64,000 nt of DNA from Patescibacteria group bacterium. GTDB taxonomy: Bacteria > Patescibacteriota > Patescibacteriia > Buchananbacterales > UBA6539. Positions 6,452 through 50,368 of this stretch are shown here, piece by piece (positions within the stretch are counted from its first letter, which is position 1; each line of letters opens with the position of its first letter). Both the position numbers and the translations under genes were made by a program. The notes under the pieces were generated by a model that was given only the letters and a program-made list of their open reading frames with translations, did not search any database and was not told the origin of the DNA. The stretch is from positions 681,385 to 745,384 of the forward strand of contig JBAZSB010000001.1 in assembly GCA_041662625.1 (NCBI GenBank). Direction: 5' to 3'.

Positions 6452-7234
6452 TTATTTTAAATCCCTGGCTGATAATTCTTTGGCTTGCTGCCACATCACC
6501 ATAAATTGGCTTTTCATCATCTCGGCCAGTTCCGAGCTTTCCACTAAAAAACCAAAGTTCTCTTGGCTTGAAGAAATAAATCGGACGGTATTACCGTAAA
6601 TTGAATAGCCTAAAGAAAAATCAATATTGGCTGGTGCAATCCGCATTTCCCTTTTTAAATTTTGATTAGCTAACAAAAAGGGGTATTTTTTTAAATCCGG
6701 AATTTGGGCTTTGGGCCAAATCACTTTTAAGCTAATATTTTGTTCCGAGCGTTTCTGATGAAATTCTTTGATAAAGTCTGGGCCTAAAAGCTCTAGCATT
6801 TTTTTAATTGGCCAATATGCCAAGACGGTAACATCACGGTAAAGCAGTATATCTTTCATCATTTGCTGCAATTCTTTTTGGCCTTCAAAAATTTGCAGTT
6901 TCGGCTGAGAAAACTTATCACGGTTTTGTAAAGATTGTTTCAAATTTTCTAACTCCTCGGCGGCGGCCAAGACTTCTTTTCGTTTCTCCTCAAGTAAAAG
7001 TTTAATCTTTTCTGAGGTAACCGTAATAAAGACTTTAGCCCCGCCTTTCAAAGTTTCACTGATTAAACCAACTTCAATCAGCCGCTTAAGCAAATCATAA
7101 ACCGATGTCCGGCTGATACCAGCTTGTCTGGCTAATTGGCTGGCACTCATTGGACCATTAGCAAAAAGCTGACTGAACAGCTCGGCCTCAATCGGCCTTA
7201 AATTAAACAAGTTTAATAATTTATTGGGTTTCAT
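6452..7234 (-). CDS. TrmB-family transcriptional regulator
   Basis: 260 aa; N-terminal wHTH ...ASQLARQAGISRTSVYDLLKRLIEVGLISE... typical TrmB; C-terminal sensor-like domain. Confidence 0.7.
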   Translation of the reverse strand: MKPNKLLNLFNLRPIEAELFSQLFANGPMSASQLARQAGISRTSVYDLLKRLIEVGLISETLKGGAKVFITVTSEKIKLLLEEKRKEVLAAAEELENLKQSLQNRDKFSQPKLQIFEGQKELQQMMKDILLYRDVTVLAYWPIKKMLELLGPDFIKEFHQKRSEQNISLKVIWPKAQIPDLKKYPFLLANQNLKREMRIAPANIDFSLGYSIYGNTVRFISSSQENFGFLVESSELAEMMKSQFMVMWQQAKELSARDLK

Positions 7235-7266
7235 ACCTTCTTTTCCCTTCTCCCCTTACTTAACTT

Positions 7267-7291
7267 CCCCTCTCCCCTTTGGGGGAGAGGG
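7267..7291. repeat. GC-rich palindromic hairpin element copy 3 (CCCCTCTCCCC-TTT-GGGGAGAGGG)
   Basis: 33 bp upstream of TrmB-like start, in divergent region with the GC-rich sulfotransferase-like gene. Confidence 0.7.
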
Positions 7292-7429
7292 CTAGGGTGA
7301 TGGGGTATTAGTCTTGCTTTAGTCGTCGGATTTTCACGACATAGTTTACATTACTCCCCTTTTTTGGCAAGGTCAAGGGAGGAAAAGAAACGAGGAGAGT
7401 AAACTGCCCTTTATATCGAGGAGAGATGA

Positions 7430-8308
7430 ATGAATAGAAGAATAATCACGCAGCCAGTCTTTATCTTCGGCTGCAGCAACAGCGGCCAGTCAATACTAGC
7501 CAGAACGCTAACTGACCATCCAGCTTTCTGCGGCTTGCCTTTGATGCGCAGACCTGATAATCATGGACAGCTGCATCACTTGGAAACTCAAGATCTGAGA
7601 CGTTACCGTAAAGGCAAAGGCTGGCCAAAGGAGCTGACTCACCGGTTTGGCAAAGAGACTGCTCGACTTTGGGCCATTAGCAAATTCCGAGGTCTGCTGA
7701 TGGTAACCGAAGCCGACTACACTCCTAGCCTGGCTCGACGAACCAAAACGGTGCTGCGCCGGTTCGTCAAGAAAGGCAAGCGGTTAGTCCTGACCGGACC
7801 AGCCAACTTACTTCGGGCAAGATTGTTCGCCACAATTTTCTCGGATGCCAAGTTCGTTGCCGTGGTCAGATATGCCTGTGCTGTTGCCGAAGGAATTATC
7901 AGAAAACGCCTGCACGATCCACAGCGGCCCTGGATATCAGGTATGCAGACAACGATTCAGCAAGCAGCTGAACAATGGGAGAATGCTAATGTCCTGCTGC
8001 TCTTACTGCAGCAATTCCTGGGCGATCGCCTTCTTATTGTGCACTACGAGGACTTGGTAACCAAACCAAAGGCTACCTTGAGTCAAGTCCTAGCTTTCCT
8101 GGGTGAAAGCAGTAAAGGCTTTAGGGCACCAAGGTTCAAGCGCAAGCTGAATCAAAGGCAAGCCGGGCGTCTGACTGCCGACGAACGCGAAGTTGTGGAA
8201 AGGACCTGCTGGCCGATGATGGACCACTTCGACTATGCCCGGCCAAAGCCGCACGTCTGGCAGCCAAAACGGAGGAAACAGAGGAGATATTCGAAGCCAA
8301 GACAATAG
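7430..8308 (+). CDS. sulfotransferase-family protein (GC-rich, likely horizontally acquired)
   Basis: 292 aa; N-terminal PVFIFGCSNSGQSILARTL resembles the PAPS-binding 5'-PSB loop of the Sulfotransfer_3 family; GC about 50% versus about 37% flanks; RBS GAGGAGAG. Confidence 0.5.
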   Translation: MNRRIITQPVFIFGCSNSGQSILARTLTDHPAFCGLPLMRRPDNHGQLHHLETQDLRRYRKGKGWPKELTHRFGKETARLWAISKFRGLLMVTEADYTPSLARRTKTVLRRFVKKGKRLVLTGPANLLRARLFATIFSDAKFVAVVRYACAVAEGIIRKRLHDPQRPWISGMQTTIQQAAEQWENANVLLLLLQQFLGDRLLIVHYEDLVTKPKATLSQVLAFLGESSKGFRAPRFKRKLNQRQAGRLTADEREVVERTCWPMMDHFDYARPKPHVWQPKRRKQRRYSKPRQ

Positions 8309-8321
8309 TTCTTGGCTTCTT

Positions 8322-8352
8322 TTTTTTACCTATACCAAAAGCCGAGGCGTCT
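8322..8352. terminator. hairpin terminator between convergent sulfotransferase-like gene and groEL (AAAGCCGAGG...CCCCGGCTTT)
   Basis: Stem about 9 bp, followed by a T-run on the minus strand (groEL side). Confidence 0.55.
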
Positions 8353-8412
8353 TGCCCCGGCTTTGTATTGGAATTTGGAATTTTGAATTTGGGATTTCCC
8401 GTGCAGCGGGCT

Positions 8413-10068
8413 TTACATCATGCCCATGCCACCCATTCCCGGCATTCCCGCACCATGGTCATGGCCTTCTTTTTCCGGTAAATCTGTCACAACGGCTTCC
8501 ATGGTAATCAAAGTTGAAGCAATGGAGGCAGCATTTTCTAAAGCCGTCCGGGTGACTTTCATCGGGTCAACAATGCCGGCTTTGAGCATGTCAACTTTTT
8601 TCATAGTGTTAAAATCATAACCGGAATTAGCATCTTGAATCTCTTTAATCTCATTCAGGATTAGGGAAATGTCTTTAAGGCCGGCGTTGGCCGCAATCTG
8701 ACGCAAGGGGGCCGATAATGCTTGTTGGATAATTTTAGCGCCAACTTTCTCATCATCAGTCAGCTCAACTTTATGTTCTTTCAATAAATCATTTAGGGCA
8801 TTGGCCACTTTGACTAAAGCGGCACCGCCACCGGGGACAATGCCTTCAGCCACAGCGGCTTTAGTCGCATTGAGGGCATCTTCGATTTTGAATTTCTTTT
8901 CTTTCATTTCGGTTTCGGTCGCGGCTCCAACTCTAATGACCCCGACGCCACCAGATAACTTAGCTAAGCGCTCCATTAATTTTTCTTTATCAAATTCGGA
9001 ATCTGACAAATCATATTCTTTTCGGATTTGCGCTATGCGATTCGCGATTTGCTTCTTATCGCCTTTGCCATCAACAATCGTGGTATATTCTTTAGTGGCA
9101 ATCACTTTGCGCGCCTGGCCTAAATGCTCAATATCAGCTTTTTCTAATTTCAAACCCACGTCTTCGGAAATCACCGTCCCACCGGTCAAAACGGCAATAT
9201 CAGCCAACATTTCTTTGCGCCGATCACCAAAACCCGGGGCTTTGACGCCCAAAACATTAAAGGTACCGCGAAGTTTATTGACCACAAAAGTTGCCAAAGC
9301 TTCACCTTCGATTTCATCAGCAATAATCACTAATTCTTTTTTGCCGCTTTGAGCAATTTTTTCTAAAAGCGGTAAAATATCATGAATCGCGGAAATTTTT
9401 TGATCGGTAATCAAAATGTAAGGGTCTTCAAAATCCGCTTCCATCCGCTCGGCATTAGTCACCATATAAGCGGAAACATAACCTTTATCAAAACGCATCC
9501 CTTGAACCACTTCTTTTTGCAAACCAAAAGTTGGACTTTCTTCAACTGTGACCACGCCATCTTTGCCCACTTCTTCCATAATGTCAGCAATCATTTGGCC
9601 GACTTGCGGGTCTAGCGAAGAAATCGTGGCCACTTGCTCCACTTCTTTTTTATCTTTGATTGGTTTAGTAATTCTCTTTAAGCCTTCGATTACTACCAAA
9701 ACAGTTTTTTGAATGCCGCTTTTTAAAGCAATCGGGTCAGTACCAGCGGCGACATTTTTTAGACCTTCTTCAATAATTGCCTGGGCCAAAACCGTAGCTG
9801 TAGTTGTACCATCACCGGCGACATCATTGGTTTTTTCCGCCACTTCTTTAATTAGCGAAGCACCGACATTCTCGAATTTATCTTCCAAATCAATTTCTTT
9901 GGCAATGGTCACGCCATCATTAGTAATGGTTGGTGAGCCAAAGCCTTTATCCAAAATCACGTTTCGGCCTTTGGGACCCAAACTGACTTTGACCGCGTCA
10001 GCGACTTGATCAATGCCTTTTTTAATCGCTGCCCGTGCCTTTTCGTTAAATAATAATTGTTTAGCCAT
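8413..10068 (-). CDS. groL: chaperonin GroEL (60 kDa)
   Basis: 551 aa; [12 protein letters not shown]..., ...[12 protein letters not shown]..., C-terminal GGM repeats (GMGGMGMM). Confidence 0.95.
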
Positions 10069-10175
10069 AGATTTATTAAATTATTAATTTTGAATTTTTA
10101 ATTTCGAATGAATTTAGAATTTTAAATATTGAATTATTAAAAATTGATTCAAAATTTAAAATTAGAAATTAGAAA

Positions 10176-10451
10176 TTATTCTATCACTGCCAAAACATCC
10201 TCATCCGACAAAATCTTGTATTCAACTTCTTCGACCTTAACTTCTTCACCAGCGTATTTGCCAAAAATTACTTTGTCGCCGACCTTCAAACCTAACTTAG
10301 TGATTTTTTCACCGCTGCCGATAGCCAAAATTTTGCCTTCAGCTTTTTTTTCTTTATCAACAGTATCGGGTAAAATAATACCCGATTTGGTAGTTTCTTC
10401 CTCGGTCAGAGGTTGAACGACGACGCGATTGCCTAATGGTTTAAGTTTCAT
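10176..10451 (-). CDS. groS: co-chaperonin GroES (10 kDa)
   Basis: 91 aa; MKLKPLGNRVVVQPLTEEETTKSGIILPDT...; immediately upstream of groL. Confidence 0.9.
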   Translation of the reverse strand: MKLKPLGNRVVVQPLTEEETTKSGIILPDTVDKEKKAEGKILAIGSGEKITKLGLKVGDKVIFGKYAGEEVKVEEVEYKILSDEDVLAVIE

Positions 10452-10548
10452 ATTTTTTGCTAAATTATTAATTATTTAGGACCTAATTAGCACTCTTAAT
10501 ATTAGAGTGCTAACTGTATATATAGGTTAAATTATTTTATAAAAGCTG

Positions 10549-11925
10549 TCAAGAGGTATTAAGGTCTTTATTTCTGAAATTCAACTGCCGTAAATTAAGG
10601 CCTAAAATTAGCCAAAAAATCATCACCCCAAAATAAAACGTCCAGAAATAATGGTCAAACAAACTGATGATTAAAACCGAAATTAGGCAAAGAAAAACAA
10701 TTACTTTTTCTAAATGCTGGGGTGATTGGTCAATTACAATTTTTGTTTTGATTAAATTCCAAAATAATAAACCTAAAATCAAAATAAAAAGTAAGGCGCC
10801 AAGAATTCCTAGTTCGGCTAAAACCAATAAATAAATATTATGAACGGGTTGATAATAATAACCCGGCCAAGAACTATTAACTATTTGGTAGACGCCCAAA
10901 GTGTAATCACCAATTCCTGTCCCCTGCCAAGGATTGGTTTTAATTATTTCCCAAGCCTGCTTGGTAAAAGCAACCCGTAAATAAATTGAAGCAACTTCCA
11001 AATCTTGTTCACCACTAATTCTGGTCAGCAACGGCTGCCAAAGACTTGAACCTAAAACACTATAAATTATCAGGGTGAGGAGCAAAATTTTAAAAAAAGT
11101 GTTTCGCCAAAGATAATAACGGTGATAAACCAACCAAAAAGTTAAAATAGTTAAACTAAAAATTAAAGCCACCCACCCCGAGCGGGAAAAACTGAAAAAT
11201 AAAGCCGGCATAATAGCGATGAGACTAACTAAAACAAAGATTCGTTGGCCTTGTTTTTTGGCAATCAAAGCTAAATAAAGTAAAAGCAATATGCCAACCA
11301 CCAAAAACCCCGCTAAAATATTAGGATGGGGTAAGCTCCCATAAGCCCTAAGCCACCGTTCACTGTTAGTCTGTAGAATAATTGCTCCGCCCAAAGTGGA
11401 GAAATGTTCGGCCAGACCTAACCATTTATTTGCAAAAACATACTGGGTAAAAAACTGCCAAATGGCAAAAATACCCTGTATGGCAGCTGAACTGACCCAG
11501 ACCACAGCAATTTTTTCCAGTTTAAAACCAAAAACTAAGACTAGTGAAAGCAAAGCCATGGCTTCAAGTAGCGTAAACCACCGGATGTAGGCCAGCTGAG
11601 CATCAAGTGACCAAATTATTGAAACTCCGGCCAGTCCCAAAAATAAAACTAAAAGCCAATAGATTGAAACTGCGGGCTTCGTTAAACGAATTAAGATTTT
11701 ATCAAATTCGAATTTTGGTAAATGACGATTTTTGATCAACCAAAAACCATAAAGTAATAAAATCAGCCATAATAAAATTTCTGTCCCATAAAGACTAAAG
11801 CGTCCATATTCCCAAACAAAACCATTCAAATAAGTCTCATGCCAGATTAATCTAGTCTGCCAGGGTAGTAAAAATAAAAAGAGGTAAAAACCAAATTCAA
11901 TTATCTTTTTTAGTTTGTCCATCAA
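10549..11925 (-). CDS. O-antigen ligase / Wzy_C-family polytopic membrane protein
   Basis: 458 aa, at least 10 TM; periplasmic loop ...YGSLPHPNILAGFL... matches the O-antigen ligase HPN-x-L motif. Confidence 0.55.
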   Translation of the reverse strand: MMDKLKKIIEFGFYLFLFLLPWQTRLIWHETYLNGFVWEYGRFSLYGTEILLWLILLLYGFWLIKNRHLPKFEFDKILIRLTKPAVSIYWLLVLFLGLAGVSIIWSLDAQLAYIRWFTLLEAMALLSLVLVFGFKLEKIAVVWVSSAAIQGIFAIWQFFTQYVFANKWLGLAEHFSTLGGAIILQTNSERWLRAYGSLPHPNILAGFLVVGILLLLYLALIAKKQGQRIFVLVSLIAIMPALFFSFSRSGWVALIFSLTILTFWLVYHRYYLWRNTFFKILLLTLIIYSVLGSSLWQPLLTRISGEQDLEVASIYLRVAFTKQAWEIIKTNPWQGTGIGDYTLGVYQIVNSSWPGYYYQPVHNIYLLVLAELGILGALLFILILGLLFWNLIKTKIVIDQSPQHLEKVIVFLCLISVLIISLFDHYFWTFYFGVMIFWLILGLNLRQLNFRNKDLNTS

Positions 11926-39877: not shown

Positions 39878-40055
39878 GGTGCGCACCCGCCTCTGGCGGG
39901 CAATGGATAGAATGTGGGCTTCCGGAGTCCCGACTGCGTCGGGATTCGATTCCTACTGGGAGCGATGGCGATGGCAAGTAGGAAAGCAGGTTCTCCGCCA
40001 CATTATCAAATTACAAAAAGGCGGATCCGCCTCTGGCGGAAAGTCCTGCTGGGCG
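39878..40055 (+). pseudogene. degenerate tRNA-Arg(CCG)-like fragments carrying GC hairpin inserts
   Basis: 39883-39970 mirrors tRNA-Arg(CCG) (CAATGGATAGAATGT, GGGCTTCCGGAGTCCC, ...CCTACTGGGAGCGA) with a CCGCC-TCT-GGCGG hairpin in the D region. 39971-40055 has a T-arm-like GCAGGTTC / TCCTGC split by the 47-nt element 39994-40040, then TGGGCGCG. Confidence 0.6.
39994..40040. repeat. 46-47 nt GC-rich hairpin element copy 1 (TCCGCC-N20-GGCGGATCCGCC-N3-GGCGGA) inserted in a T-loop
   Basis: About 90% identical to copy at 49211-49256; both inserted between ..GGTTC and the 3' half of a tRNA T-loop. Confidence 0.7.
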
Positions 40056-40142
40056 CGAATAATAACTTTTAACATTTGACAATTAACTATTAGCAGTAAA
40101 GCTTAAAGTTAAAAGTCAAATGTTAACTGCTAATTGTTATAT

Positions 40143-40178
40143 GGTGGCCATGGTGAAATGGTTATCACTAGAGTTTGC
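40143..40178 (+). repeat. partial duplicate of tRNA-His 5' half
   Basis: GTGGCCATGGTGAAATGGTTATCACTAGAGTTTG identical to 40252-40286, then diverges. Confidence 0.7.
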
Positions 40179-40250: not shown

Positions 40251-40323
40251 GGTGGCCATGGTGAAATGGTTATCACTAGAGTTTGTGGCACTCTCGTTAC
40301 GGGTTCGATTCCCGTTGGCCACC
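40251..40323 (+). tRNA. tRNA-His (anticodon GTG) with G-1
   Basis: G-1 + GTGGCCA acceptor, D arm GTGA-AATGGTTA-TCAC, anticodon loop TTGTGGC, T arm ACGGG-TTCGATT-CCCGT, 3' TGGCCAC + discriminator C. Confidence 0.8.
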
Positions 40324-41925
40324 CCTTTGCGCCTTATTTGGGGCTAAAACCCCGATTGACGCACCACCTAAGGGGTAATTTACAGGTTCTAACCACCTAC
40401 TGTATCGAAGTATTTGAGATAAGCCGTTTTCAACTATTGAGAACGGTTTATTTAGTTCTATAGTGAGTTTTTTGTCTTTCAGGGTAAGGTTCGAGCCTAT
40501 AGTGGTTAGGATGGCCTTTTTAGTCTCTAAGTCGCCATGCTCAAAGGCATAGGTGGCATTACAGGCAAAATCAAAGGTCTTTTTAACCAGCTCGCGCCAG
40601 TTGTCGGCCCGGTGTTCGGTCCCACGCATTGCTTCCCTGATTTTATTCAGCTGACCGGTTAATTCGGTCTTCTTTTGTTTATATTGTTCGTCATCGATCT
40701 GATCTTTTATCTTCATGTTTAACAAGTTATCTAACTGCCTTTCAAGGCTTTCACAGGTCCGCTGTTGATTATCATAAATCTTCTGCCGGTCTTCAGTTTC
40801 TTGGTCATTCATTTTATCAAGATATTCAAGCGCTATATCTTTAAAAGTTTCTGGTATTTTAATTTTTATCAGCTGGTTAACTATCTGCAATTCTAAATCT
40901 CTGACTTCCACGGTTTTTTGGGAACAGGTGGGTAACTTTCTTTTAATGCAACGATAATAAGTATAATGATGAACATGGCCATTGCCTTTGTTGGTTTTAA
41001 ATTTTTCTTCTGCGGTAATCATTGATCCGCACTCACCGCACCTGATCATACCAGTAAAAGCAAACACATGCTTCTGGGGCCGGGCTTTTCCTTTACGGCC
41101 CAAAAGTTCCTGAACCCTCCAGTATTCCTCTTCGATTATCATTTTCTCATGTTTGCCATCATACCAGTTGCCGCTACCCACTGGATATTCAAACTTACCA
41201 TAATAAAAAGGGTCATTAAAAATTCTGTATATTGAGCTTTCACTCATTGGCTTACCGCCCATTCTTCTTTTTACAGGCGTCCTATAACCCCACTCATTAT
41301 TGAGCTTGTTTAATATCTCGGATACAGGATGTAAACCAGTCAACATTAACTCAAACGCTTTTCTAATTAAAGGAAACCTTTCTGGATCCGTTAAAACTTT
41401 TTTTTCTCCTTTTAACCCAAGTTTATCTCCCATATAGCCCGGCTTAACAACACAAGGATTCCAACCCTGATTAACCTTTGCCATCAGGCCTCTTCTGGTA
41501 TTTGTTTTTAAGTCTAAAATAAACTGGTTAGCCATACCAAATTCAACATTCATAAGCATAACATTGTCTTCGGGATAATAATCACGTTCTGGCGTCCTTA
41601 TATGCTTAATAATGCCATTCTGTAAGAGATGTGATGTTTTACCACTATCCTCGGCATTTCTAGACAAACGATCCAGCTTCCAGCAAAGTATTCCCTGCGC
41701 CTCGCCACTTTTTATCCGATCCAACATCTCATTAAATACCTCTCGGCCCGTATCTTTAGCTGATTTTGACTCAGTAAATATTTTTACTATTTTAAGACTA
41801 AATTTGTTTGCTACTTCTTTCAGAGAATCAATTTGTGAGGGAATAGATAAAACCTGCCGGTCTTCTGATTCGGTTGACTTCCGGGCATAGATAAAATATT
41901 TAATTTTGTCCGAGTTGTCCTTCAT
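40297..41925 (-). CDS. large serine recombinase (resolvase/invertase N-domain + recombinase domain + zinc ribbon)
   Basis: 542 aa; N-terminal ...FIYARKSTESEDRQVLSIPSQIDSL... catalytic-Ser region, central recombinase domain, ...CGECGSMITAEEKFKTNKGNGHVHHYTYYRC... zinc ribbon; last 9 codons (GQRESNP) are encoded by the complement of the tRNA-His T-arm/acceptor. Confidence 0.8.
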   Translation of the reverse strand: MKDNSDKIKYFIYARKSTESEDRQVLSIPSQIDSLKEVANKFSLKIVKIFTESKSAKDTGREVFNEMLDRIKSGEAQGILCWKLDRLSRNAEDSGKTSHLLQNGIIKHIRTPERDYYPEDNVMLMNVEFGMANQFILDLKTNTRRGLMAKVNQGWNPCVVKPGYMGDKLGLKGEKKVLTDPERFPLIRKAFELMLTGLHPVSEILNKLNNEWGYRTPVKRRMGGKPMSESSIYRIFNDPFYYGKFEYPVGSGNWYDGKHEKMIIEEEYWRVQELLGRKGKARPQKHVFAFTGMIRCGECGSMITAEEKFKTNKGNGHVHHYTYYRCIKRKLPTCSQKTVEVRDLELQIVNQLIKIKIPETFKDIALEYLDKMNDQETEDRQKIYDNQQRTCESLERQLDNLLNMKIKDQIDDEQYKQKKTELTGQLNKIREAMRGTEHRADNWRELVKKTFDFACNATYAFEHGDLETKKAILTTIGSNLTLKDKKLTIELNKPFSIVENGLSQILRYSRWLEPVNYPLGGASIGVLAPNKAQRGGQRESNP

Positions 41926-42334
41926 ATTTTTTGTTTACTTTAATCGCACCAAACATTAAAAGGATAAGGGTTAAATAAACCAGAAACGGCACAAGCATTG
42001 TTAAAAAATTTATTACTCCAAATTCCTTTAGAACTGTTAGATTAAAAGAATCTAAAGTGGTTAAATAAAAGTCCAAGCCGGCAGTGGCTAAAAATACGAG
42101 AATAAAAAGCCAGCTGAAAGCTCTAAAAATTCTACCTAAAATAATTTTGTTGGTCTTGCTAGTGAAATAAAACAAGGTTAATGGCATGAACACCAGAAAT
42201 ATAAAATAAGAATAATACCAAAGCAAAAAATAAAGATGGCCGAAATTGTAATCGTCTTTAGTAAAACCAAAAATCCAACAAACTGCTATGACTAATAAGA
42301 TTGATAGACCTTGTAAGTGTAATTTTTCAGACAT
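41900..42334 (-). CDS. hypothetical small polytopic membrane protein (island cargo)
   Basis: 144 aa; 4 predicted TM; AT-rich codon usage. Confidence 0.4.
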   Translation of the reverse strand: MSEKLHLQGLSILLVIAVCWIFGFTKDDYNFGHLYFLLWYYSYFIFLVFMPLTLFYFTSKTNKIILGRIFRAFSWLFILVFLATAGLDFYLTTLDSFNLTVLKEFGVINFLTMLVPFLVYLTLILLMFGAIKVNKKYEGQLGQN

Positions 42335-42351
42335 ACTTTTAGGATTATTAA

Positions 42352-42882
42352 TTATAGATCACCGGTTAAAAAATGTAGTATAAAGTATGACAAAATTATT
42401 CCGGCGGGTATTATAAAATAAATAGCTGATTCAATGATTCTTTTGATTGACCGCCTTCTACCATCACTCATCTTTGTTGATTTTTCATCTACTTTCATAT
42501 CTGCATAAATAAGCCCACCAAACAAAAAACTAAAAATAGCAGTGCCAATACCAATTCTAATAAAAAGACCCTTGGTTTCTGTCCCTACCGGACTGTAAAT
42601 AGGATCACCCCATTCTATACATTCCCTATCAGGACCATTACCCCCGGACATAATACATGGTATTTCTTTAAGATACTTTCCGTCTGGTGTTATATTGCCA
42701 AGTATATTGAGTGCAAAAAAGACGAAGAATAAAGTAGCCCAAATAATTAACCAATACCCTATGGTATATTTCGGCACTTCTTTTGATGATGAGGCGCGAG
42801 GTAATTTCATATTTTTATTTTGGTGAGCCACTATAAAGCCCCCACCAGTTTTAAGGACCGAAGTCCTTCCATGCGCAAACAC
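42352..42882 (-). CDS. hypothetical membrane protein (island cargo)
   Basis: 176 aa; true start probably the internal MKLPRASSS; 12-bp perfect inverted repeat CATGCGCAAACA/TGTTTGCGCATG overlaps the annotated start. Confidence 0.4.
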   Translation of the reverse strand: MFAHGRTSVLKTGGGFIVAHQNKNMKLPRASSSKEVPKYTIGYWLIIWATLFFVFFALNILGNITPDGKYLKEIPCIMSGGNGPDRECIEWGDPIYSPVGTETKGLFIRIGIGTAIFSFLFGGLIYADMKVDEKSTKMSDGRRRSIKRIIESAIYFIIPAGIILSYFILHFLTGDL

Positions 42883-43062
42883 GGCCTGATGAGGGCATCA
42901 TAAATGTTTGCGCATGGTATTGAGTTATGCTTTAATTTTAGCTCTGCTTAGGGGGTTTGTAAAGATCAAAAGTTAATTTTTATATACAGAATTGGGGTAG
43001 TGCCAGTATCTAAAATCATTTTTTGAAAAATCTAGGAGTCACTCTTACATATAAAAATTTAT

Positions 43063-43674
43063 TTAACATCCTCCCTCCCTAGCTATTGTCTTAAAATTGC
43101 CATCAATTATATCGTCCTTTCTGAGATTACCGGAACGAGCGGCTAAAGCCAGCAGACTTAAAGCGGTTCTGTTTGAATTGCCATCCAGCTCTTTTATTTT
43201 TAAAGTTATTAGCTCATGTCTGTCTTTTGCTTCCATGCTTTTGAAAAGCCACGTCATTGCCTGATTAGTTGAAATCTCATCCGGCTTGGCCAATGCTTCG
43301 GCTAATTTTAATTCGCCTAGCTCTAAAGATTTTTTATAGATCGCTTGCCTTACTACTTCTTCATCTATGGCTTTATCGTCAGCCAACTGTAAAATCTTTC
43401 TTACCTTAAGTCGCTGATCTGCGTCGTATTTGCGAAAAAATCGGTAGCACGTCATATAACCCGCCTTACCCTTGAGTCGCGGTTCAATCTGAGCAAAATA
43501 TTGCTGGTGCATTTGCTGAAGCGAAAGCTTGCCTTTTTGTTCCTCGTAAACCTCAACTAGCTTCTCCATAAAAGGAGATGAGGCAATAATTGATTGAGAG
43601 TTTATAAGCTTCATGGTTGTAAATTCAGTGTTAAATAGGTGTAATTGATCTTGGGCCGCGTAATTCTTAAACAA
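43063..43674 (-). CDS. hypothetical protein (moderately GC-rich, island cargo)
   Basis: 203 aa helical protein; no motif recognised. Confidence 0.35.
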   Translation of the reverse strand: MFKNYAAQDQLHLFNTEFTTMKLINSQSIIASSPFMEKLVEVYEEQKGKLSLQQMHQQYFAQIEPRLKGKAGYMTCYRFFRKYDADQRLKVRKILQLADDKAIDEEVVRQAIYKKSLELGELKLAEALAKPDEISTNQAMTWLFKSMEAKDRHELITLKIKELDGNSNRTALSLLALAARSGNLRKDDIIDGNFKTIAREGGC

Positions 43675-43801
43675 GCTTGTTTCTGACTTACTTTAGGGCT
43701 TACCAAGATGATTCAGGCGAAACTAATGGAGTAAAATGAGTTGACTAATGCCGGTCCGGGATGACTCCTGCTCTTATTTCTGATTATATGGATCAAAACT
43801 T

Positions 43802-43972
43802 CTTAGGATGATAAAAATCCAAATATTTATTAAGTATGTCATCGGCAATGTGAGACTCCGGTTTTTTAAATTTAAAAGCCACTCTTCTTAGCTTCTCTTT
43901 GGTTGCAAGCGTAATTCTAACGTGCTGGGTATGTAAATTTGCGGAGTTAATTTTCTTAGTCATATTAAGTAA
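43802..43972 (-). CDS. possible ribbon-helix-helix (CopG/Arc-like) small DNA-binding protein
   Basis: Not in ORF track (56 aa): MTKKINSANLHTQHVRITLATKEKLRRVAFKFKKPESHIADDILNKYLDFYHPK; the HVRITLATKEKLRRVA beta-strand/helix pattern is typical of RHH regulators. Confidence 0.3.
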
Positions 43973-44208
43973 CTTGTTACCTTGTAGCCATCAGCGACTT
44001 CTATGGGCCAATAACACTCAAATGCTTTTTAAGGAATATTATCATCGTTTAAAGAATAGATTGTAAAATTTTGGCGATGGCCGATCCCAAATTTTACAGG
44101 GTTGATACTGGGCAAATTGGCCACCCGGTCGAGAAGTCGCTACTCGTTGCCGGGATTTAATCTGCCCACTATCTTGCGTCGAGTTTTGTCTGAGCATCAC
44201 GCAAAAGC

Positions 44209-44397
44209 TCAGCTATTCTCATTGTTAAAATTTTGTTTTGGTATTGGTCTATAAATAACCCTAAACAGGTTAACTAAATTATTTGCCATTTCTAAAGCCT
44301 CCTGCTCAGTAATTTCCTGATCAAATTCCTGCTTATAAGCAGTTTGGAATTTTCGGATCATTGTTTGTTTATCCTGCGGAGACATAAAAACGGCCAT
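44209..44397 (-). CDS. small hypothetical protein
   Basis: 62 aa, helical, no family. Confidence 0.25.
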   Translation of the reverse strand: MAVFMSPQDKQTMIRKFQTAYKQEFDQEITEQEALEMANNLVNLFRVIYRPIPKQNFNNENS

Positions 44398-44714
44398 TTA
44401 CTGTTTTGGCCGTTTGCTATTTGTTTAATTTAAATCCCCGGCGGAAGACAAAGAAAATAGCACAAACGCTGCCAATTGACAGTTAATGCACTTCTCTTTG
44501 ACTTCAGACCGGGGTGTGTCTAACTCATTAGTCCATCCCGTATTGCCTCCCTATACCTTTTCAGCTAGGGCCAGAATATGGGGGTGGTGGATTCTTGCTA
44601 GGGGTGTCCCGCGTAAACCCGAAAAGTAATATTTATTTTTGAATTAACTAAAATTATTGTAGCACCACATAATTGGCTGTCAATAGATTTTTTCGCAATT
44701 TTAGAGTGGCAAAG

Positions 44715-44808
44715 GATTGACAAATACAGACTGTGGAATGTTCACTTCGTTGCTAATTAAAGGGGAAATTCAGGGGTGCAATGGGTTGACAAATAACCTG
44801 TGGATAAG
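44715..44808 (+). promoter_or_regulatory. tandem direct repeats G(G/A)TTGACAAATA-N-CTGTGGA(A/T) upstream of the 519-aa island gene (promoter/operator candidates)
   Basis: Two copies about 68 bp apart (44715-44740; 44783-44808), each with a TTGACA hexamer; additional ATTGACAGTTAA at 44476 and 46398. Confidence 0.4.
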
Positions 44809-44849
44809 CTTGATTTAAACCTAGATTAAAACTATGCTTAAAAAGGAAT

Positions 44850-46409
44850 ATGCAAAATCAAGATGTATTCGAATTATACAAACCATTAAGAAATCATCTA
44901 AGACAAATTGATCTTTATGGATCTTTTTATACTATTTGGAATTATAGCCAACATCTATTATCCAACAAAAAATTCCCCAACGATGTCTTAGTTGCACCAG
45001 AATTTCTATCTTTAGATCAAATAGGAAAAATGAGGATGGTCTCTCTTTGGGAATTAGAAACATTATGTAAGGAAATAATAATAAACTCTCAAGAAGTGGA
45101 GGGGAAAAAAACATTAAAAAATTGGGAGTATTTCGCTAATGCAATAAATAAATTAAAAAAATTAGAAAATGATATTAGCGGAAAATTTGTAGATAAAAAT
45201 AATATATTATTGGAGATGCACAGAATTGCCCATAGACAATTTCCATGGCAGGCTGAAAAACCAGCGGCTATATCAATGACAAGATATTATAAAATTTTTA
45301 ATTATGAACCAATAAGTGAAATTATTAAAAAGGTGACTAATCTGTCTACCCAAGAATTATATATAATCGCAACGGCCTTATTTGGTCTCTACGAAAATAA
45401 ATTCACATTATTTTATCCCACCAAAATAGAAATAAAAGGAATATCAATAAAAAATTTTGACTACTTTTTAAACCATTTTTGCTGCGATATAAAAACACTT
45501 AAGGAAAAATTACTAAAAGAGCAAGAAATCAATGAAAAATTTGCTTACGCTTTCGGATCCTTAAGAGCCTATCCGATAATAAAAATGGCCATTCCTTCTG
45601 GTAAAGATGGCTTAGTGTGTCCACTACCAACATTACTGTTTTGGCGATTAACTAATGGCATCTATTATGAAATTTTTCGACAAAAGGATTTCGATAACTA
45701 TTTTGGTTTTTCTTTCCAGACATATGTTGGAGAGGTTATTAAAAAAGCTACCTATAATAAAAAGATAAAATACTATGCTGAAGAACAATATAGGATCGGA
45801 AAGGAACTAAAAGATACGATCGATTGGATAGTTGCAGATGAAGAAGGAACTTTGTTTATTGAGTGTAAAACAAAACGAATGACTTTCGGCGCCAAAACTG
45901 AGATAAATTCCATGGATGAACTGGAAAAAGAGCTAGATAAAGCGGCTGAATTTATATTACAAGTTTACAAAGCAATTAAAGATTGTTTGGACAATAAGTA
46001 TCCATCGTATAAACACAGATCTAATAAGAATATATTTCCCTTAATCGTTACATTGGAAGATTGGTATCTATTTGGTGATCTCACCTTAGAAAAATTAAAT
46101 GAAAAAATCAAAATTATGCTAAGTAATCACAAGATACCGACATCATGGTTAGATGATTACCCATATTCGATATGCTCCGTGTCAGAATTTGAAAAAATCA
46201 CACAAGTAATCCAACTTATAGATATTAAGGAATTTATGAGTAAAAAAGTTTTTGATCAAGACTGTAAAAAATGGAACTTTAGTCCATTTATCGGCAGTAA
46301 ATTCTCAGAAATAAACAACAAAATAAAATTCTTATTTCCCGAAGATTTTGATAGAATTTTCCCTCGACATTTGAGAGGAGATCAAAAAATTACACAAATT
46401 GACAGTTAA
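44850..46409 (+). CDS. hypothetical protein with PD-(D/E)xK nuclease-like motif (island cargo)
   Basis: 519 aa, AT-rich; ...DTIDWIVADEEGTLFIECKTKRMTF... fits hhhD-x(9)-ExK of restriction-endonuclease-fold nucleases; rest unassigned. Confidence 0.35.
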   Translation: MQNQDVFELYKPLRNHLRQIDLYGSFYTIWNYSQHLLSNKKFPNDVLVAPEFLSLDQIGKMRMVSLWELETLCKEIIINSQEVEGKKTLKNWEYFANAINKLKKLENDISGKFVDKNNILLEMHRIAHRQFPWQAEKPAAISMTRYYKIFNYEPISEIIKKVTNLSTQELYIIATALFGLYENKFTLFYPTKIEIKGISIKNFDYFLNHFCCDIKTLKEKLLKEQEINEKFAYAFGSLRAYPIIKMAIPSGKDGLVCPLPTLLFWRLTNGIYYEIFRQKDFDNYFGFSFQTYVGEVIKKATYNKKIKYYAEEQYRIGKELKDTIDWIVADEEGTLFIECKTKRMTFGAKTEINSMDELEKELDKAAEFILQVYKAIKDCLDNKYPSYKHRSNKNIFPLIVTLEDWYLFGDLTLEKLNEKIKIMLSNHKIPTSWLDDYPYSICSVSEFEKITQVIQLIDIKEFMSKKVFDQDCKKWNFSPFIGSKFSEINNKIKFLFPEDFDRIFPRHLRGDQKITQIDS

Positions 46410-46435
46410 CTGTAAAAGGTAGAATATAAAATTGT

Positions 46436-46891
46436 ATGAAAAAACTAATCAACATAGCGCTTTTTCTTTTATTATTTTGGCCGTTAGCCAGCTTGGCTCA
46501 TCCCGGCCGAACTGATGCTTATGGCTGTCATACCTGCCGGACAAATTGTCCATCATGGGGTTTAGATTATGATGAATACCACTGTCATAATACAAAGGCT
46601 TTACCACAACCAGAAGAACCAATCAAAAGCACTTACGGAGCTGGCGGCACAGGTTATACAGATCCAGCACCAGAATACAAAAAACCAGCACCTATTGAAA
46701 ACAATATCAATCCTAATGTAAATATCAATTCAGAAACTAATAGTAATAAAAACAATTTCCTCAATCAAAAAGTATTAGGAACAGAATATAATGAACCATC
46801 CTCCAAAGAAGATGATAATAATTGGCTTGGCTGGATTATTGGCCTAGGTGCTGCTGGCGCTGGAGGGTATTGGCTGACGAAAAAAAAATAA
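46436..46891 (+). CDS. YHYH-domain protein with signal peptide and C-terminal Gly-rich membrane anchor
   Basis: 151 aa; ...HPGRTDAYGCHTCRTNCPSWGLDYDEYHCH... matches the YHYH motif family; C-terminal GLGAAGAGGYWLTKKK. Confidence 0.55.
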   Translation: MKKLINIALFLLLFWPLASLAHPGRTDAYGCHTCRTNCPSWGLDYDEYHCHNTKALPQPEEPIKSTYGAGGTGYTDPAPEYKKPAPIENNINPNVNINSETNSNKNNFLNQKVLGTEYNEPSSKEDDNNWLGWIIGLGAAGAGGYWLTKKK

Positions 46892-46892
46892 T

Positions 46893-47873
46893 ATGTCTAA
46901 GATAAAAAAAGAAATTTACAATCTAGAATTTCCTCCTTACGTTAGCCAGCTAGAGATTGGGGGGTATATTTTTAAACGAATTGATAATTATAATCAGTTA
47001 ATAACCGAGTTACAACACTTTGTTAATATTTCCGGCTCTGAAAACCCGATTCAACCTAACACTGGGAAACATATGATTACTGCGACCGTATCTATACCTG
47101 AGAACGAAATAAAATGTTGTCTTCCTTGGACAGATCCAAATAGCACTCAAATTCTAGATGTATTATTTCTTTTAACAATATTTACTGGAAGAAGTGTTTT
47201 TGTTAAAGAATGGGAAGGCGATGCCCCAATTATCGCTGATCATCGCATACATCAATGGGGAGGCCAACTGCAGTGTTCCATTAAATATGAAGGTATGTGG
47301 AGGCACAAAGATACCGGAGAGATAAAGACGGAGCAAGAAATGGAAAAAAGTAAAATACCAATTTTTGATTATGATCATATAGATATTGGATTTGAAAAAA
47401 GTTTAAACAAAATACTAACGCTCATCTCAAATCCAGAATGGCAAGAAAAATATTCCGGTGGCTACTTCCTTTTTTTATTTAGAGACGCCACATTTAGACA
47501 AATACTAGAAAAATCGTTCCTAACTTGTTGGACAATATGGGAACAGATATTTTCCATTGAAAATTCCAAATGGCTGCCAGATGAAGAAATTTTTAGATTG
47601 GGGGGCGATAGAAAAATTGCCTATATTTTGAATAAATATTTTAATAAAAAAATAGATAAACGAGCATTGGCAAATATCAAACAACTTGCTAAATCAAGAA
47701 ATCGACTAGTGCATTTCGGCAAAAAGACTAATGACGTAACAAACGAGGAAAAAGAAATGTTTATTAGACTAACTGAACAGCTTATTGCATTGATATTAGG
47801 ATTAGAACCATCCAATATATTTAATTCTCTGGAAAAATTAAATAGTTTTCTAAATAAACAGCCGCATTGCTAA
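46893..47873 (+). CDS. hypothetical protein with C-terminal HEPN-like domain (canonical R-N-x-x-x-H motif)
   Basis: 326 aa; start 2 nt after the YHYH gene stop (coupled); ...ANIKQLAKSRNRLVHFGKK... gives RNxxxH in a helical C-terminal about 100 aa. Confidence 0.4.
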   Translation: MSKIKKEIYNLEFPPYVSQLEIGGYIFKRIDNYNQLITELQHFVNISGSENPIQPNTGKHMITATVSIPENEIKCCLPWTDPNSTQILDVLFLLTIFTGRSVFVKEWEGDAPIIADHRIHQWGGQLQCSIKYEGMWRHKDTGEIKTEQEMEKSKIPIFDYDHIDIGFEKSLNKILTLISNPEWQEKYSGGYFLFLFRDATFRQILEKSFLTCWTIWEQIFSIENSKWLPDEEIFRLGGDRKIAYILNKYFNKKIDKRALANIKQLAKSRNRLVHFGKKTNDVTNEEKEMFIRLTEQLIALILGLEPSNIFNSLEKLNSFLNKQPHC

Positions 47874-47973
47874 TATTAGTAGTTAATCTAAATAATATCT
47901 GGTTTTAGTATCAAATTTATTTAGCTAAAAAAATAAATATAAAATTAAAATATTAAAATAGACATGCAAAATT

Positions 47974-48627
47974 ATGTCCATGGGTATTGTTCTAATATTT
48001 CCTGGCGGTGTATTCTTGGCAGCCGATGGTCGCCAAAGTAATCCTATTAGGGGCAACAAACTAATTAGTGATAGCGTATCTAAAATAGAAAAAATTGATT
48101 CTAAACTTTTTATAATCCATTTAGGTATCTCTCAAGCCTCTAGTGTATCAGCTAAAGATTTCGCCAAAAGATATAAACTAAACGATGACCCGGAAAAACT
48201 AAAAACAAAACTTGAGACAAGCGTATCGATTGGTCTTCATAGTATAATACCTAGACTAAGCCCAGATATAGATATCCATAATCCAGCTATTAAAAGTATT
48301 CTTCTTCTGGGTGGGATCGCCCAACAAACCTCGTTTATTGCCGGAGCGCTTTACGGTATTGATAACAAATCGACAATCTGCGAAACTAGCTGCTACAAAA
48401 ATATTGTTCTAGGCGGAGAAGAATTGAACGCGAATACTTTTTTCAACAAAAAGTGTGAAGAATTGATTCATGGCCAAATATCAACTGATGAATTAGTGCA
48501 AAAACTAATAAATGCATCACGGGACACCATAAGAATGGCGGAAAAAAAAGATAAAAGGATTGGTGGAAAAATTAGCTATGCTGTAGCACAAATAAATGGT
48601 CCCACGATATTTAATACAATAAAATAA
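47974..48627 (+). CDS. hypothetical protein with proteasome-beta/HslV-like (Ntn-hydrolase) N-terminal pattern
   Basis: 217 aa; MSMGIVLIFPGGVFLAADGRQSNPIRGNKLISDSVSKIEKIDSKLFIIHLG parallels TTIVG..GVV.AAD.R.T.G..V.D...KI..I....CC.AG of proteasome beta subunits, but lacks the N-terminal Thr. Confidence 0.3.
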   Translation: MSMGIVLIFPGGVFLAADGRQSNPIRGNKLISDSVSKIEKIDSKLFIIHLGISQASSVSAKDFAKRYKLNDDPEKLKTKLETSVSIGLHSIIPRLSPDIDIHNPAIKSILLLGGIAQQTSFIAGALYGIDNKSTICETSCYKNIVLGGEELNANTFFNKKCEELIHGQISTDELVQKLINASRDTIRMAEKKDKRIGGKISYAVAQINGPTIFNTIK

Positions 48628-48642
48628 TAACGTGACTCTGCT

Positions 48643-49083
48643 ATGTCTTTTACTAGCCATATATATCAGATAAAATTTTCAGGATCAAGAATGCCTGAAA
48701 AAATTTTATTGTTTGAAAGCAATAAAATAATTATTGATTTTAACAAATTAAAACCTGACGATTACAGTTTTAAATTTGGTAGCTATTTCGGCACCAGTTT
48801 TGCACAAAAAATAATTACCATTAAAGACCCTAAATATATAACCAATGATAAATCCCCCAACAAAAAATTTTACCCCATATCAATTCTACATGAAATAGGT
48901 CATTCCAAACTACACAAAAGTCCTCCAAACAAAAAACCAGTGGGGCTTATAAAATACGAGATGGAAGCATGGGAATATGCGCTTGAAGAGATAAAAGACA
49001 AAAAACTAAAATATAATGCCGAGGAACTCCAAAAATTCATTTCAAAATGTCTTAAATCTTATATAAAAAATAATCACGCTTAG
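48643..49083 (+). CDS. ImmA/IrrE-family zinc metallopeptidase (HEIGH...E.EAW.YA)
   Basis: 146 aa; ...PISILHEIGHSKLH... then about 25 aa later ...YEMEAWEYALEEI..., matching the ImmA/IrrE HExxH...ExEANxFA signature. Confidence 0.6.
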   Translation: MSFTSHIYQIKFSGSRMPEKILLFESNKIIIDFNKLKPDDYSFKFGSYFGTSFAQKIITIKDPKYITNDKSPNKKFYPISILHEIGHSKLHKSPPNKKPVGLIKYEMEAWEYALEEIKDKKLKYNAEELQKFISKCLKSYIKNNHA

Positions 49084-49124
49084 TAAAACAAATCTTTAAC
49101 TCCTTAATTATCTCTGCTAAATAA

Positions 49125-49151
49125 GTTCTAACGTCGTCCCTTTCCCGACCC
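49125..49151. repeat. 27-nt direct repeat GTTCTAACGTCGTCCCT(T/C)TCCCGACCC, copy a
   Basis: 26/27 identical to 50342-50368; the pair brackets the GC-rich hydrolase gene. Confidence 0.75.
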
Positions 49152-49189
49152 TTTTGCGCCTTACCCTATTAACCCACTTTGGCGGCGGG

Positions 49190-49273
49190 TGGCACTCTCG
49201 TTACGGGTTCTCCGCCACATTATTAAATCAGAAAAGGCGGATCCGCCTTCGGCGGAGATTCCCGTAGGCCACC
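49190..49273 (+). pseudogene. tRNA-His 3'-portion copy interrupted in the T-loop by the 46-nt GC hairpin element (right att-like junction of island)
   Basis: GTGGCACTCTCGTTACGGGTTC + [49211-49256 insert] + GATTCCCGTAGGCCACC; matches tRNA-His 40285-40322 apart from the insert and one substitution. Confidence 0.7.
49211..49256. repeat. 46-47 nt GC-rich hairpin element copy 2
   Basis: TCCGCCACATTATTAAATCAGAAAAGGCGGATCCGCCTTCGGCGGA; see copy 1 at 39994-40040. Confidence 0.7.
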
Positions 49274-49411: not shown

Positions 49412-50221
49412 TTAGTCAGCCTCCGCCCATTGCCTGACAGATTCGGTAATTAACCGTTTCATCTCCGCCTGTTGGTCGGGCTCAGCGTAACTATGCTCAG
49501 CCCCGATCACAACTTGGACTTCGGTCCCAAGAACCGCGGCCAATCTACGGCTCTGGTCAATCGGCACGCAAGTGTCCTTCTCACCGTGGATGATCAGGGT
49601 GGAGCAACGGATGCCGGCTGACATACGCATCGTGTCATATGACTGAAGATCGACCCAGTAGTCGTAACTCAGGTCATACTCCACGATGTCATGATTATCA
49701 TGCAGGGTTCCCTGCTCTTGCCATTCCCTAATCTGTGTATTACCCAGCCGTTCTTGCCAGAAGCGTATTGGTTCAGTCACAGGGGACTTCAGGATCAGCC
49801 GTTCAACGGTCGGATCTTGGGCAGCCACAACCAGTGAGACTAGCCCGCCAAAGCTGGCACCGAGCAAGGCAATATGGTATTGCCCAATTCCTCGTAAATA
49901 AGCAATCACGGCGTTCAGACTGGCAACAGCCTTAGTCAGGGTAACATCGGCTGATACAGCGTATCCACTTGTGTGGCCGTAGAGCGGACCATGGCCGTAG
50001 TAGTCATACCGAACGGTTCCGATGCTCAAACGGTTAAACTCCCCCTGAAACTCTTTGTAGAGTCCGCTGTCTCCGCTTGAGGTAAATCCATGCGACATAA
50101 CAACAACTGCCCGGGCATCAGTCGGAATTGAGACGATCGTGCGCACAGGATTACCCGCCGAGTCATAAAGCACCATTGTTTCCTCTATACACATTAGACG
50201 ATTCCTCCCTTCGCTAGACAA
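49412..50221 (-). CDS. alpha/beta-hydrolase fold protein (GxSxG; dienelactone hydrolase/S9-like), GC-rich cassette
   Basis: 269 aa; nucleophile elbow LLGASFGGLV, ...HGEKDTCVP..., ...GAEHSY...; about 53% GC; RBS AAGGGAGG. Confidence 0.7.
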   Translation of the reverse strand: MSSEGRNRLMCIEETMVLYDSAGNPVRTIVSIPTDARAVVVMSHGFTSSGDSGLYKEFQGEFNRLSIGTVRYDYYGHGPLYGHTSGYAVSADVTLTKAVASLNAVIAYLRGIGQYHIALLGASFGGLVSLVVAAQDPTVERLILKSPVTEPIRFWQERLGNTQIREWQEQGTLHDNHDIVEYDLSYDYWVDLQSYDTMRMSAGIRCSTLIIHGEKDTCVPIDQSRRLAAVLGTEVQVVIGAEHSYAEPDQQAEMKRLITESVRQWAEAD

Positions 50222-50341
50222 AGGTTCAAAACGTTAATCTAATATTACATAATCATTAAGGTTTGTCAATAATTTTGGTATTTCGTATCGACTGCATCAC
50301 AAAAATAAATTCTTAATTCTCTAATAATAATGGATAACCTC

Positions 50342-50368
50342 GTTCTAACGTCGTCCCTCTCCCGACCC
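50342..50368. repeat. 27-nt direct repeat copy b
   Basis: See 49125-49151. Confidence 0.75.

Follow-up and report, generated by a model that had tools for sequence, protein, structure and literature searches.

The closest described counterpart of the first gene considered here is GAPS1, the GMT-island-encoded anti-phage system 1 of Vibrio parahaemolyticus, which consists of one protein, has the T7 capsid protein as its trigger, leads to dormancy, and loses its defensive activity upon mutation of D313 and K328 (bioRxiv 10.1101/2023.03.28.534373). Divergent prokaryotic homologues of the proteasome, which are among the closest known counterparts of another of the genes, have been described in 22 subfamilies, some of them phage-borne; it is accepted that Thr1/Ser1, Asp17, Lys33, and Gly47 define proteasome-like proteins (Fuchs, Alva and Lupas 2021; PMC8665760). 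The present study concerns a mobile island located in a 64,000-nt stretch of DNA (hereafter, the window) from the Patescibacteria group bacterium GCA_041662625.1 (contig JBAZSB010000001.1, positions 681,385 to 745,384 of the forward strand). Patescibacteria, also known as the Candidate Phyla Radiation (CPR), have tiny genomes, and few known defence systems have been reported in them. In the initial annotation of this DNA, five consecutive genes of the island had been proposed to form a single, undescribed defence or abortive-infection module.

Comparison with other genomes favours a different organisation. The island cargo is likely to be a mosaic of independent mobile cassettes, including two probable single-gene defence genes, and not one five-gene system, and the parts of the five-gene block belong to known kinds, as new members or as sister clades. 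All five open reading frames (ORFs) lie where they had originally been placed, all on the plus strand, and constitute the right half, or cargo half, of an island of 8.9 kb. Each is annotated as 'hypothetical protein' by NCBI:

44850 to 46409, plus strand: GapS1-like PD-(D/E)xK protein, 519 aa (NCBIfam NF047931 antiphage_GapS1; catalytic candidates D325, E338, and K340).
46436 to 46891, plus strand: YHYH-domain protein, 151 aa (36.9 bits with NCBIfam NF033223 YHYH_alt, whose cut-off is 30).
46893 to 47873, plus strand: 326-aa protein with a predicted N-terminal alpha/beta domain (residues 1 to about 165, fold without match) and a C-terminal Apea-like HEPN domain (R269-N-R-L-V-H274).
47974 to 48627, plus strand: predicted divergent proteasome-beta/HslV-like N-terminal nucleophile (Ntn) hydrolase, 217 aa (Ser2 at the nucleophile position, D18, K37, G51).
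48643 to 49083, plus strand: HExxH protein, 146 aa (H83-E-I-G-H87, E106/E108).

The co-occurrence of these genes was assessed in 52 genome loci containing relatives of the HEPN protein, 80 metagenome loci containing relatives of the GapS1-like protein (one of which, L057, comes from this very organism), and 7 contexts of the 217-aa family, independent of one another; all 11 island proteins served as phmmer queries against the ORFs of these 52 and 80 loci and of 11 loci surrounding 217-aa relatives. Neither the HEPN relatives nor the GapS1-like relatives of other organisms had any of the other four genes nearby, the single YHYH match being the one in L057; YHYH relatives were thus missing beside both families outside the organism itself. 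Relatives of the other four, those of the 146-aa protein included, were likewise missing from the 217-aa contexts. The complete set was found only in the same species, and components recurring together in unrelated genomes, the mark of a multi-gene system, were not detected among these loci; on this ground, which the initial annotation had itself named as one that would refute it, the proposal of an undescribed five-gene module was abandoned. As the five families occur separately in other genomes, the cargo is better described as mixed than as one new system. All-against-all clustering of neighbouring proteins also returned no conserved partner for either nuclease family. Serine recombinases related to that of the island adjoin GapS1-like genes in six or seven loci and HEPN genes in several others, and the related islands with this type of recombinase carry a GapS1-like gene (L107, L127, L126, L066, L094, L084) or a HEPN gene (L016, L009), never both.

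These distributions bear directly on the idea of one cooperative, undescribed defence or abortive-infection system in which the proteases regulate or activate the nucleases. Its appeal lies in the local arrangement, with all genes on the same strand, intergenic gaps of 26, 1, 100, and 15 nt, and no convincing terminator in a scan of the block (promoter and terminator counts were of no use for delimiting operons), as well as in the existence of nuclease-plus-protease combinations in known systems, such as the CapP proteases of the cyclic-oligonucleotide-based antiphage signalling systems (CBASS), of which only a weak PADLOC capP match is seen here. We nevertheless regard it as highly improbable: no pair of the five families occurs in another organism (52, 80, and 7 loci), both large families are devoid of a conserved neighbour, related islands hold the GapS1-like or the HEPN gene alone, and neither GAPS1 nor ApeA, the known relatives, needs a second protein to function.

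A more restricted version, with two local sub-modules consisting of a GapS1-like/YHYH/HEPN operon and of a proteasome-like plus HExxH protease pair acting as a regulatory or toxin-antitoxin-like unit, is still quite unlikely. The stop codon of the YHYH gene and the ATG of the HEPN gene are 1 nt apart, in agreement with the translational coupling first suggested, and this spacing, together with the 15 nt that separate the 217-aa gene from the 146-aa gene, suggests coupled expression, while an AT-rich gap of 100 nt lies between the two groups. Against this stand the lack of any YHYH relative adjoining the 52 HEPN relatives, the lack of a 146-aa relative or an ImmA-type HExxH motif beside the 217-aa relatives in the 7 contexts, and the location of the YHYH protein, extracytoplasmic as judged by eye, versus that of the cytoplasmic HEPN protein. 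The 151-aa YHYH protein, whose domain assignment in the initial annotation is borne out by a score above the NCBIfam cut-off, is probably extracytoplasmic, since its translation displays, by eye, a signal-peptide-like N-terminal segment and a C-terminal hydrophobic anchor.

With the cargo regarded as a mosaic, the 519-aa protein is the part most closely tied to a validated system. It matched the NCBIfam model NF047931 (antiphage_GapS1) with an E-value of 2.8e-26 over positions 59-439 of the 455 in the profile, scoring 92.4 bits against a curated cut-off of 320, and hence outside curated GapS1 membership. At least 574 relatives, most of them from Patescibacteria and all annotated as 'hypothetical', share 40-55% identity with it over their full length; relatives also reside on plasmids of Pseudomonas, Bacillus, and other hosts, beside recombinases. 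All six relatives tested, the Pseudomonas and Bacillus plasmid proteins included, matched the GapS1 model at 1e-18 to 1e-28, below the curated threshold, and significant but sub-threshold matches of this kind indicate a sister clade. On the basis of sequence, therefore, the 519-aa protein is a member of a clade homologous and sister to the GAPS1/GapS1 family and not a curated member of it. The profile of the GapS1-like family had no match among PDB sequences.

The candidate active site points in the same direction. D325, E338, and K340 (D-x12-E-x-K) are invariant in 28 sequences of the 519-aa family, the site lies towards the C-terminus, and the Asp-to-Lys spacing of 15 equals that between D313 and K328 of GAPS1. 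A restriction-endonuclease-fold motif, given as VAD-x9-ECK, had been read in this protein at the outset; the ECK part was confirmed as E338-C339-K340, with E338 and K340 invariant in the 28 relatives, whereas the rest was revised, VAD preceding ECK by 7 residues and not 9, and the invariant Asp being D325 and not the D330 of VAD. Nor is the protein unrecognisable, given that it matches the model of a named anti-phage family over almost its whole length.

GAPS1 and the 519-aa protein are alike in being single proteins of about 450-520 aa with homology over nearly the whole profile, in having a PD-(D/E)xK site towards the C-terminus with the same Asp-to-Lys distance, and in being mobile-island cargo with no conserved partner gene. 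They differ in that the latter belongs to a distinct clade (92 versus 320 bits), found mostly in Patescibacteria and including the Pseudomonas and Bacillus plasmid relatives, and in the type of island, which is defined by a serine recombinase at a tRNA gene here and by the GMT trio in the case of GAPS1. No neighbour family is common to more than 5 of the 80 metagenome loci, which is consistent with GAPS1 being a single-protein system; on this genomic evidence, the GapS1-like family has no obligatory partner. By analogy, the 519-aa protein is probably a stand-alone anti-phage nuclease, which would sense a phage component, cut nucleic acid through its PD-(D/E)xK site (D325, E338, K340), and thereby arrest growth.

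A small protein of the same island, 62 aa long and encoded at 44209-44397 on the minus strand, has relatives in six metagenome loci that contain a GapS1-like gene (L070 7683-7970, L105 7285-7440, L136 7381-7974, L124 7426-7995, L130 6564-6728, L107 2061-2276). In four of them (L070, L105, L124, L136) the relative lies just 5' of the GapS1-like gene, sometimes within a protein of about 190 aa; no other companion of the GapS1-like family was seen to recur, and even this one is infrequent. Also just 5' of the GapS1-like gene of the window, two 30-nt direct repeats (44697-44726 and 44766-44795), 69 nt apart and each with a TTGACA, could be tandem promoters or operator sites.

The second probable defence gene encodes the 326-aa protein. 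The C-terminal HEPN motif originally recognised in it, SRNRLVH, occupies residues 268-274, and R269 and H274 are invariant in 31 relatives, as expected for the Rx4-6H motif; the domain conforms to the all-alpha HEPN fold. The N-terminal half of the family has its own invariant polar residues, namely H60, D89, R100, and D116. Against Pfam HEPN_Apea (PF18739) the protein scored 21.7 bits, below the gathering cut-off of 24.4 (E-value 3e-4), and many relatives with 50-60% identity have a precomputed match to PF18739. It did not match the full-length catalogued ApeA model, which includes an N-terminal sensor domain. PADLOC, one of the checks suggested in the initial annotation, gave only marginal matches for the 326-aa protein, in its C-terminal part (DUF3644, 0.001; Cas13-ApeA, 0.042), and weak ones for the 146-aa protein (capP, 0.0085; peptidase_U41, 0.0068), and the best match across the 31 relatives of the 326-aa protein was 4.5e-4; such marginal HEPN-type matches indicate that the family is uncatalogued in PADLOC. 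The early suspicion of a defence role finds support for two of the genes, which are tied to an experimentally validated single-gene anti-phage system (GAPS1) or to the domain of one (Apea-type HEPN). The structural model of the 326-aa protein had no significant Foldseek match in PDB or BFVD, the family profile found nothing among PDB sequences, and no structural or sequence relative of the N-terminal domain was detected in these searches.

The family comprises at least 176 full-length relatives with 43-62% identity. The 52 genome loci span Patescibacteria, DPANN archaea, Chloroflexota (including the cultured Pelolinea submarina), Desulfosporosinus, Planctomycetota, and Omnitrophota; tblastn of the HEPN protein against plasmids returned none. 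Clustering of the surrounding genes gave no conserved partner, and restriction-modification (R-M) genes were the only recurring neighbourhood, Type ISP/IIG, Type III, Type II, and Type I components being the commonest families. The Type ISP/IIG neighbours amount to six proteins, with the HEPN gene directly downstream in five loci (L020, L032, L036, L041, L042); elsewhere, a HEPN relative lies between the mod and res genes of a Type III system (L008), follows a HaeIII restriction endonuclease and C5 methyltransferase (L004) or a Type II restriction endonuclease and N6/N4 methylase (L003), or adjoins HsdS (L013) or Mrr (L017).

Compared with ApeA, the 326-aa protein is alike in being encoded by a single gene, in being a probable dimer by analogy, and in having relatives with PF18739, and differs in size (326 versus about 600 aa), in an N-terminal domain with no detectable relative, and in the occurrence of its family in CPR bacteria, DPANN archaea, Chloroflexota, and Planctomycetota. 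The location of its relatives within or after R-M operons resembles that of the described HEPN genes embedded in R-M operons (Anantharaman et al. 2013; PMC3710099), whereas the gene of the window has no adjacent R-M gene and sits on a recombinase island beside a GapS1-like gene. By analogy with ApeA and HepT, two copies of the protein would pair and together make up a composite Rx4H active site, and its N-terminal domain would detect infection, upon which the HEPN domain would cleave RNA; it is probably a single-protein RNase.

A broader proposal may be advanced tentatively, at somewhat below even confidence: the 326-aa family could be an uncatalogued, compact single-protein defence combining an ApeA-like HEPN RNase with a novel N-terminal sensor domain (H60, D89, R100, D116), spread by horizontal gene transfer across CPR, DPANN archaea, Chloroflexota, Planctomycetota, and Firmicutes and repeatedly recruited beside Type ISP/III/II R-M systems, while, as a secondary possibility, the 217-aa family might represent proteasome-like proteases that travel on mobile elements and take part in conflict systems.

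Two observations concern the surroundings of HEPN relatives. In Chloroflexota/Dehalococcoidia genomes (L020 at about 6867-10950, L032, L036, L041, L042), the HEPN gene starts about 10-20 nt past a Type ISP/IIG gene of about 1040 aa on the same strand, so that the two genes may truly form a pair in these genomes. About 230 nt 5' of an Omnitrophota HEPN relative, an ORF of 256 aa (L007 5860-6627, plus strand) starts with MTLILTELSGRGITMAADSAI, resembling the N-terminus of an Ntn hydrolase; it was considered as a second proteasome-like gene and rejected, as BLASTP against the 217-aa protein was not significant and there was no Pfam match.

Several points weigh against the mosaic of two self-contained defence genes. 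The short same-strand gaps and the lack of a convincing terminator imply that the five genes are probably co-transcribed here, and they could interact locally, although nothing supports it. Co-occurrence of the 146-aa and 151-aa proteins was examined from the side of their partners only, and the context sample of the 217-aa family is small (7). The GapS1 match, at 92 bits against a cut-off of 320, is so far below the curated level that the 519-aa clade may differ in trigger or target, and R-M genes flank only about one quarter of the HEPN relatives, the others lying among ordinary genes.

The last point also touches on whether the cargo is anti-phage at all. The nucleases might be toxins that stabilise the island or make its host addicted to it, or the set might serve CPR episymbiosis, for example if the YHYH protein is secreted and, like the proteases, acts on material of the host cell. 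HEPN and PD-(D/E)xK domains are also frequent in toxin-antitoxin and inter-element conflict systems (Anantharaman et al. 2013; PMC3710099), most neighbours of HEPN relatives are ordinary genes, and neither a cognate antitoxin nor a defence phenotype is known for the GapS1-like and HEPN clades. We consider this unlikely, as the only recurring HEPN neighbours are R-M genes, the only characterised relative of the 519-aa protein is a validated anti-phage protein, and no small antitoxin-like partner is conserved beside either nuclease gene. The island borders, the assignment to families, the conservation of catalytic residues, the missing co-occurrence, and the R-M surroundings of the HEPN family are shown directly; we infer the defence function, triggers, and targets from GAPS1 and ApeA, and in the mosaic that we prefer the GapS1-like and ApeA-like HEPN proteins would each be a self-contained sensor-effector, with the YHYH, proteasome-like, and HExxH genes as further, separate cargo.

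The relatives of the 217-aa protein were elusive, a word-indexed search returning one and an exhaustive profile search 160 cluster representatives of about 220 aa. A profile built from 71 sequences of the family matched proteasome beta subunits in PDB with an E-value of 1.7e-10, placing position 2 on the mature Thr1, and 24 of the 71 members matched Pfam Proteasome (PF00227) weakly, with 1.9e-5 at best; the protein of the window, taken alone, gave no match. Position 2 is Thr in 46 members and Ser in 25, that is, in 71/71, the protein of the window having Ser2, and D18 and K37 are invariant, with G51 in 70/71; the family thus displays the equivalents of Thr1, Asp17, Lys33, and Gly47. The initial annotation had described a proteasome beta/HslV-like pattern lacking Thr1: the pattern stands, and there is indeed no Thr, yet the nucleophile position is filled by Ser2. 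An AlphaFold2 model from a 2-sequence alignment reached a predicted local distance difference test score (pLDDT) of only 38, the relationship being settled instead by the profile search against PDB sequences.

Judged from its sequence, the 217-aa protein is a divergent proteasome-beta/HslV-like Ntn hydrolase, alike to HslV and proteasome beta subunits in its candidate catalytic residues, with Ser/Thr directly after Met1 (Thr1), D18 (Asp17), K37 (Lys33), and G51 (Gly47), and different in that it fails Pfam Proteasome. HslV has no propeptide, and neither has the 217-aa protein. The 7 contexts of the family are mobile, with transposases, an integrase, a TIR protein, and a toxin-antitoxin pair, and no AAA+ unfoldase partner was seen in them; a scan of viral contigs with the 2-sequence alignment and a tblastn search against phages both returned none. 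Separately, three proteins (P0289, P0293, and P0296; loci L138 and L139) contain, by eye, repetitive Gly/Ser/Thr-rich segments reminiscent of phage tail fibres; the element that encodes them also has a resolvase and a primase-like gene.

The last gene had been taken for an ImmA/IrrE peptidase. In its translation, HEIGH occupies residues 83-87 and EMEAWEYA residues 106-113, about 20 residues apart, providing the HExxH motif and a downstream Glu as putative third ligand; we take this layout, H-E-x-x-H followed about 20 residues on by E-x-E-A-x-x-Y-A, to resemble the ImmA/IrrE motif. The NCBI annotation (MFA6255096.1) starts the gene at Met17, giving 130 aa. A match to the PHROG 87 metallo-protease (E-value 1.5e-4) adds to the weak PADLOC matches, whereas no Pfam or NCBIfam model, Peptidase_M78 included, matched at E <= 1 and phmmer against PDB found nothing. 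Searches of viral contigs and of phage genomes returned no relatives, and a regular-expression search for the ImmA-like motif over all fetched loci gave no other example. In comparison with ImmA/IrrE proteins (Peptidase_M78), including CapP of CBASS, the protein shares the HExxH layout and has its weak best matches in PHROG 87 and capP; it differs in having no Pfam, NCBIfam, or PDB match, in being only 130-146 aa long, and in having no adjacent helix-turn-helix repressor gene of the ImmR, DdrO, or CapH type, the island end following directly. A minimal ImmA/IrrE-like zinc peptidase is possible. Thus, the PD-(D/E)xK, YHYH, HEPN, and proteasome-like identifications of the initial annotation were upheld, and the HExxH peptidase found weak support.

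The cargo is carried by an integrative island of 8.9 kb (about 40285-49210), inserted into a tRNA-His gene by a large serine recombinase, as follows from the recombinase domains, the tRNA-His gene, and an exact 22-nt direct repeat, GTGGCACTCTCGTTACGGGTTC. The two copies of the repeat (40285-40306, within tRNA-His, and 49189-49210, directly past the last of the five genes) are 8,904 bp apart, and the mobile nature ascribed to the locus from the beginning is confirmed by the recombinase and this repeat. The remaining features of the island are the following:

40252 to 40325, plus strand: intact tRNA-His(GTG) called by ARAGORN (Rfam 59.4 bits), with the left 22-nt att core at 40285-40306.
40297 to 41925, minus strand: large serine recombinase of 542 aa, the island integrase (Pfam Resolvase 3.3e-18, Recombinase 7.3e-8, Zn_ribbon_recom 3.2e-10).
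41900 to 44397, minus strand: island backbone or unknown ORFs, comprising 144-aa and 176-aa hydrophobic, probably membrane, proteins and proteins of 203, 56, and 62 aa.
49189 to 49272, plus strand: right att core (49189-49210), together with the original 3' part of tRNA-His, now displaced, which has a 46-nt insertion at the T-loop position (exact repeat; sequence reading).

The 3' end of the recombinase gene overlaps the tRNA-His gene, whose 3' part, in the intact copy, is supplied by the island. Library searches gave no family matches for the minus-strand proteins of 41900 to 44397, and an Rfam scan for a hidden RNA component found three tRNAs only. An independent assembly contig (L002) stops at 49208, at the right repeat, and identical or 99.8%-identical copies were found only in assemblies of the same organism, a Patescibacteria metagenome-assembled genome. 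The GC content is 0.35 for the island, 0.29-0.39 for the five genes, in line with their AT-richness as first reported, and 0.39 for the window.

Further observations were made around the island borders. A hairpin-rich insert of about 46 nt (...AAAAGGCGGATCCGCCTNNGGCGGA) is present exactly twice in the window versus 0 expected (40016-40040 and 49232-49256), within 39989-40056 and 49189-49272, each time at the T-loop position of a tRNA-like 3' part; the hosts are a tRNA-Arg-like sequence and the displaced tRNA-His 3' half (GGGTTC^insert^GATTCCCGTAGGCCACC), neither of which was called as a tRNA by ARAGORN or Rfam. A small mobile insertion and an unusual tRNA intron are both conceivable explanations. 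Upstream of the intact tRNA-His gene, at a distance of 108 nt, lies an exact copy of 35 nt of its 5' half (40143-40177), possibly a scar left when an element earlier entered or left this tRNA gene. Beyond the right border, a 67-nt repeat with 75% identity (49085-49151 and 50302-50368) flanks an alpha/beta-hydrolase gene (49412-50221, minus strand) with a GC content of 0.525, far above the 0.39 of the window, which suggests a second small foreign insert beside the island. Within the island, the minus strand at 44420-44640, upstream of the 62-aa gene, has a folding z of -3.5, with 0/200 shuffles as good, and is preceded by a promoter-like site of the sigma-70 type (11/12, TG extension present; 44683..44656, minus strand); it had no Rfam match and no conservation in the fetched loci, and could be a structured leader or a small RNA.

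The locus also carries a caution, in that a tight same-strand cluster of defence-flavoured domains does not equal a system, each cassette having its own distribution. What remains most notable are two families: the HEPN one, uncatalogued, associated with R-M genes, and with an N-terminal domain that has no match, and the mobile proteasome-like one. The GapS1-like and HEPN families both travel on small serine-recombinase islands and, if the proposed functions are true, a hundreds-strong GapS1-like clade and a HEPN family shared with DPANN archaea would enlarge the view of phage resistance in CPR bacteria.

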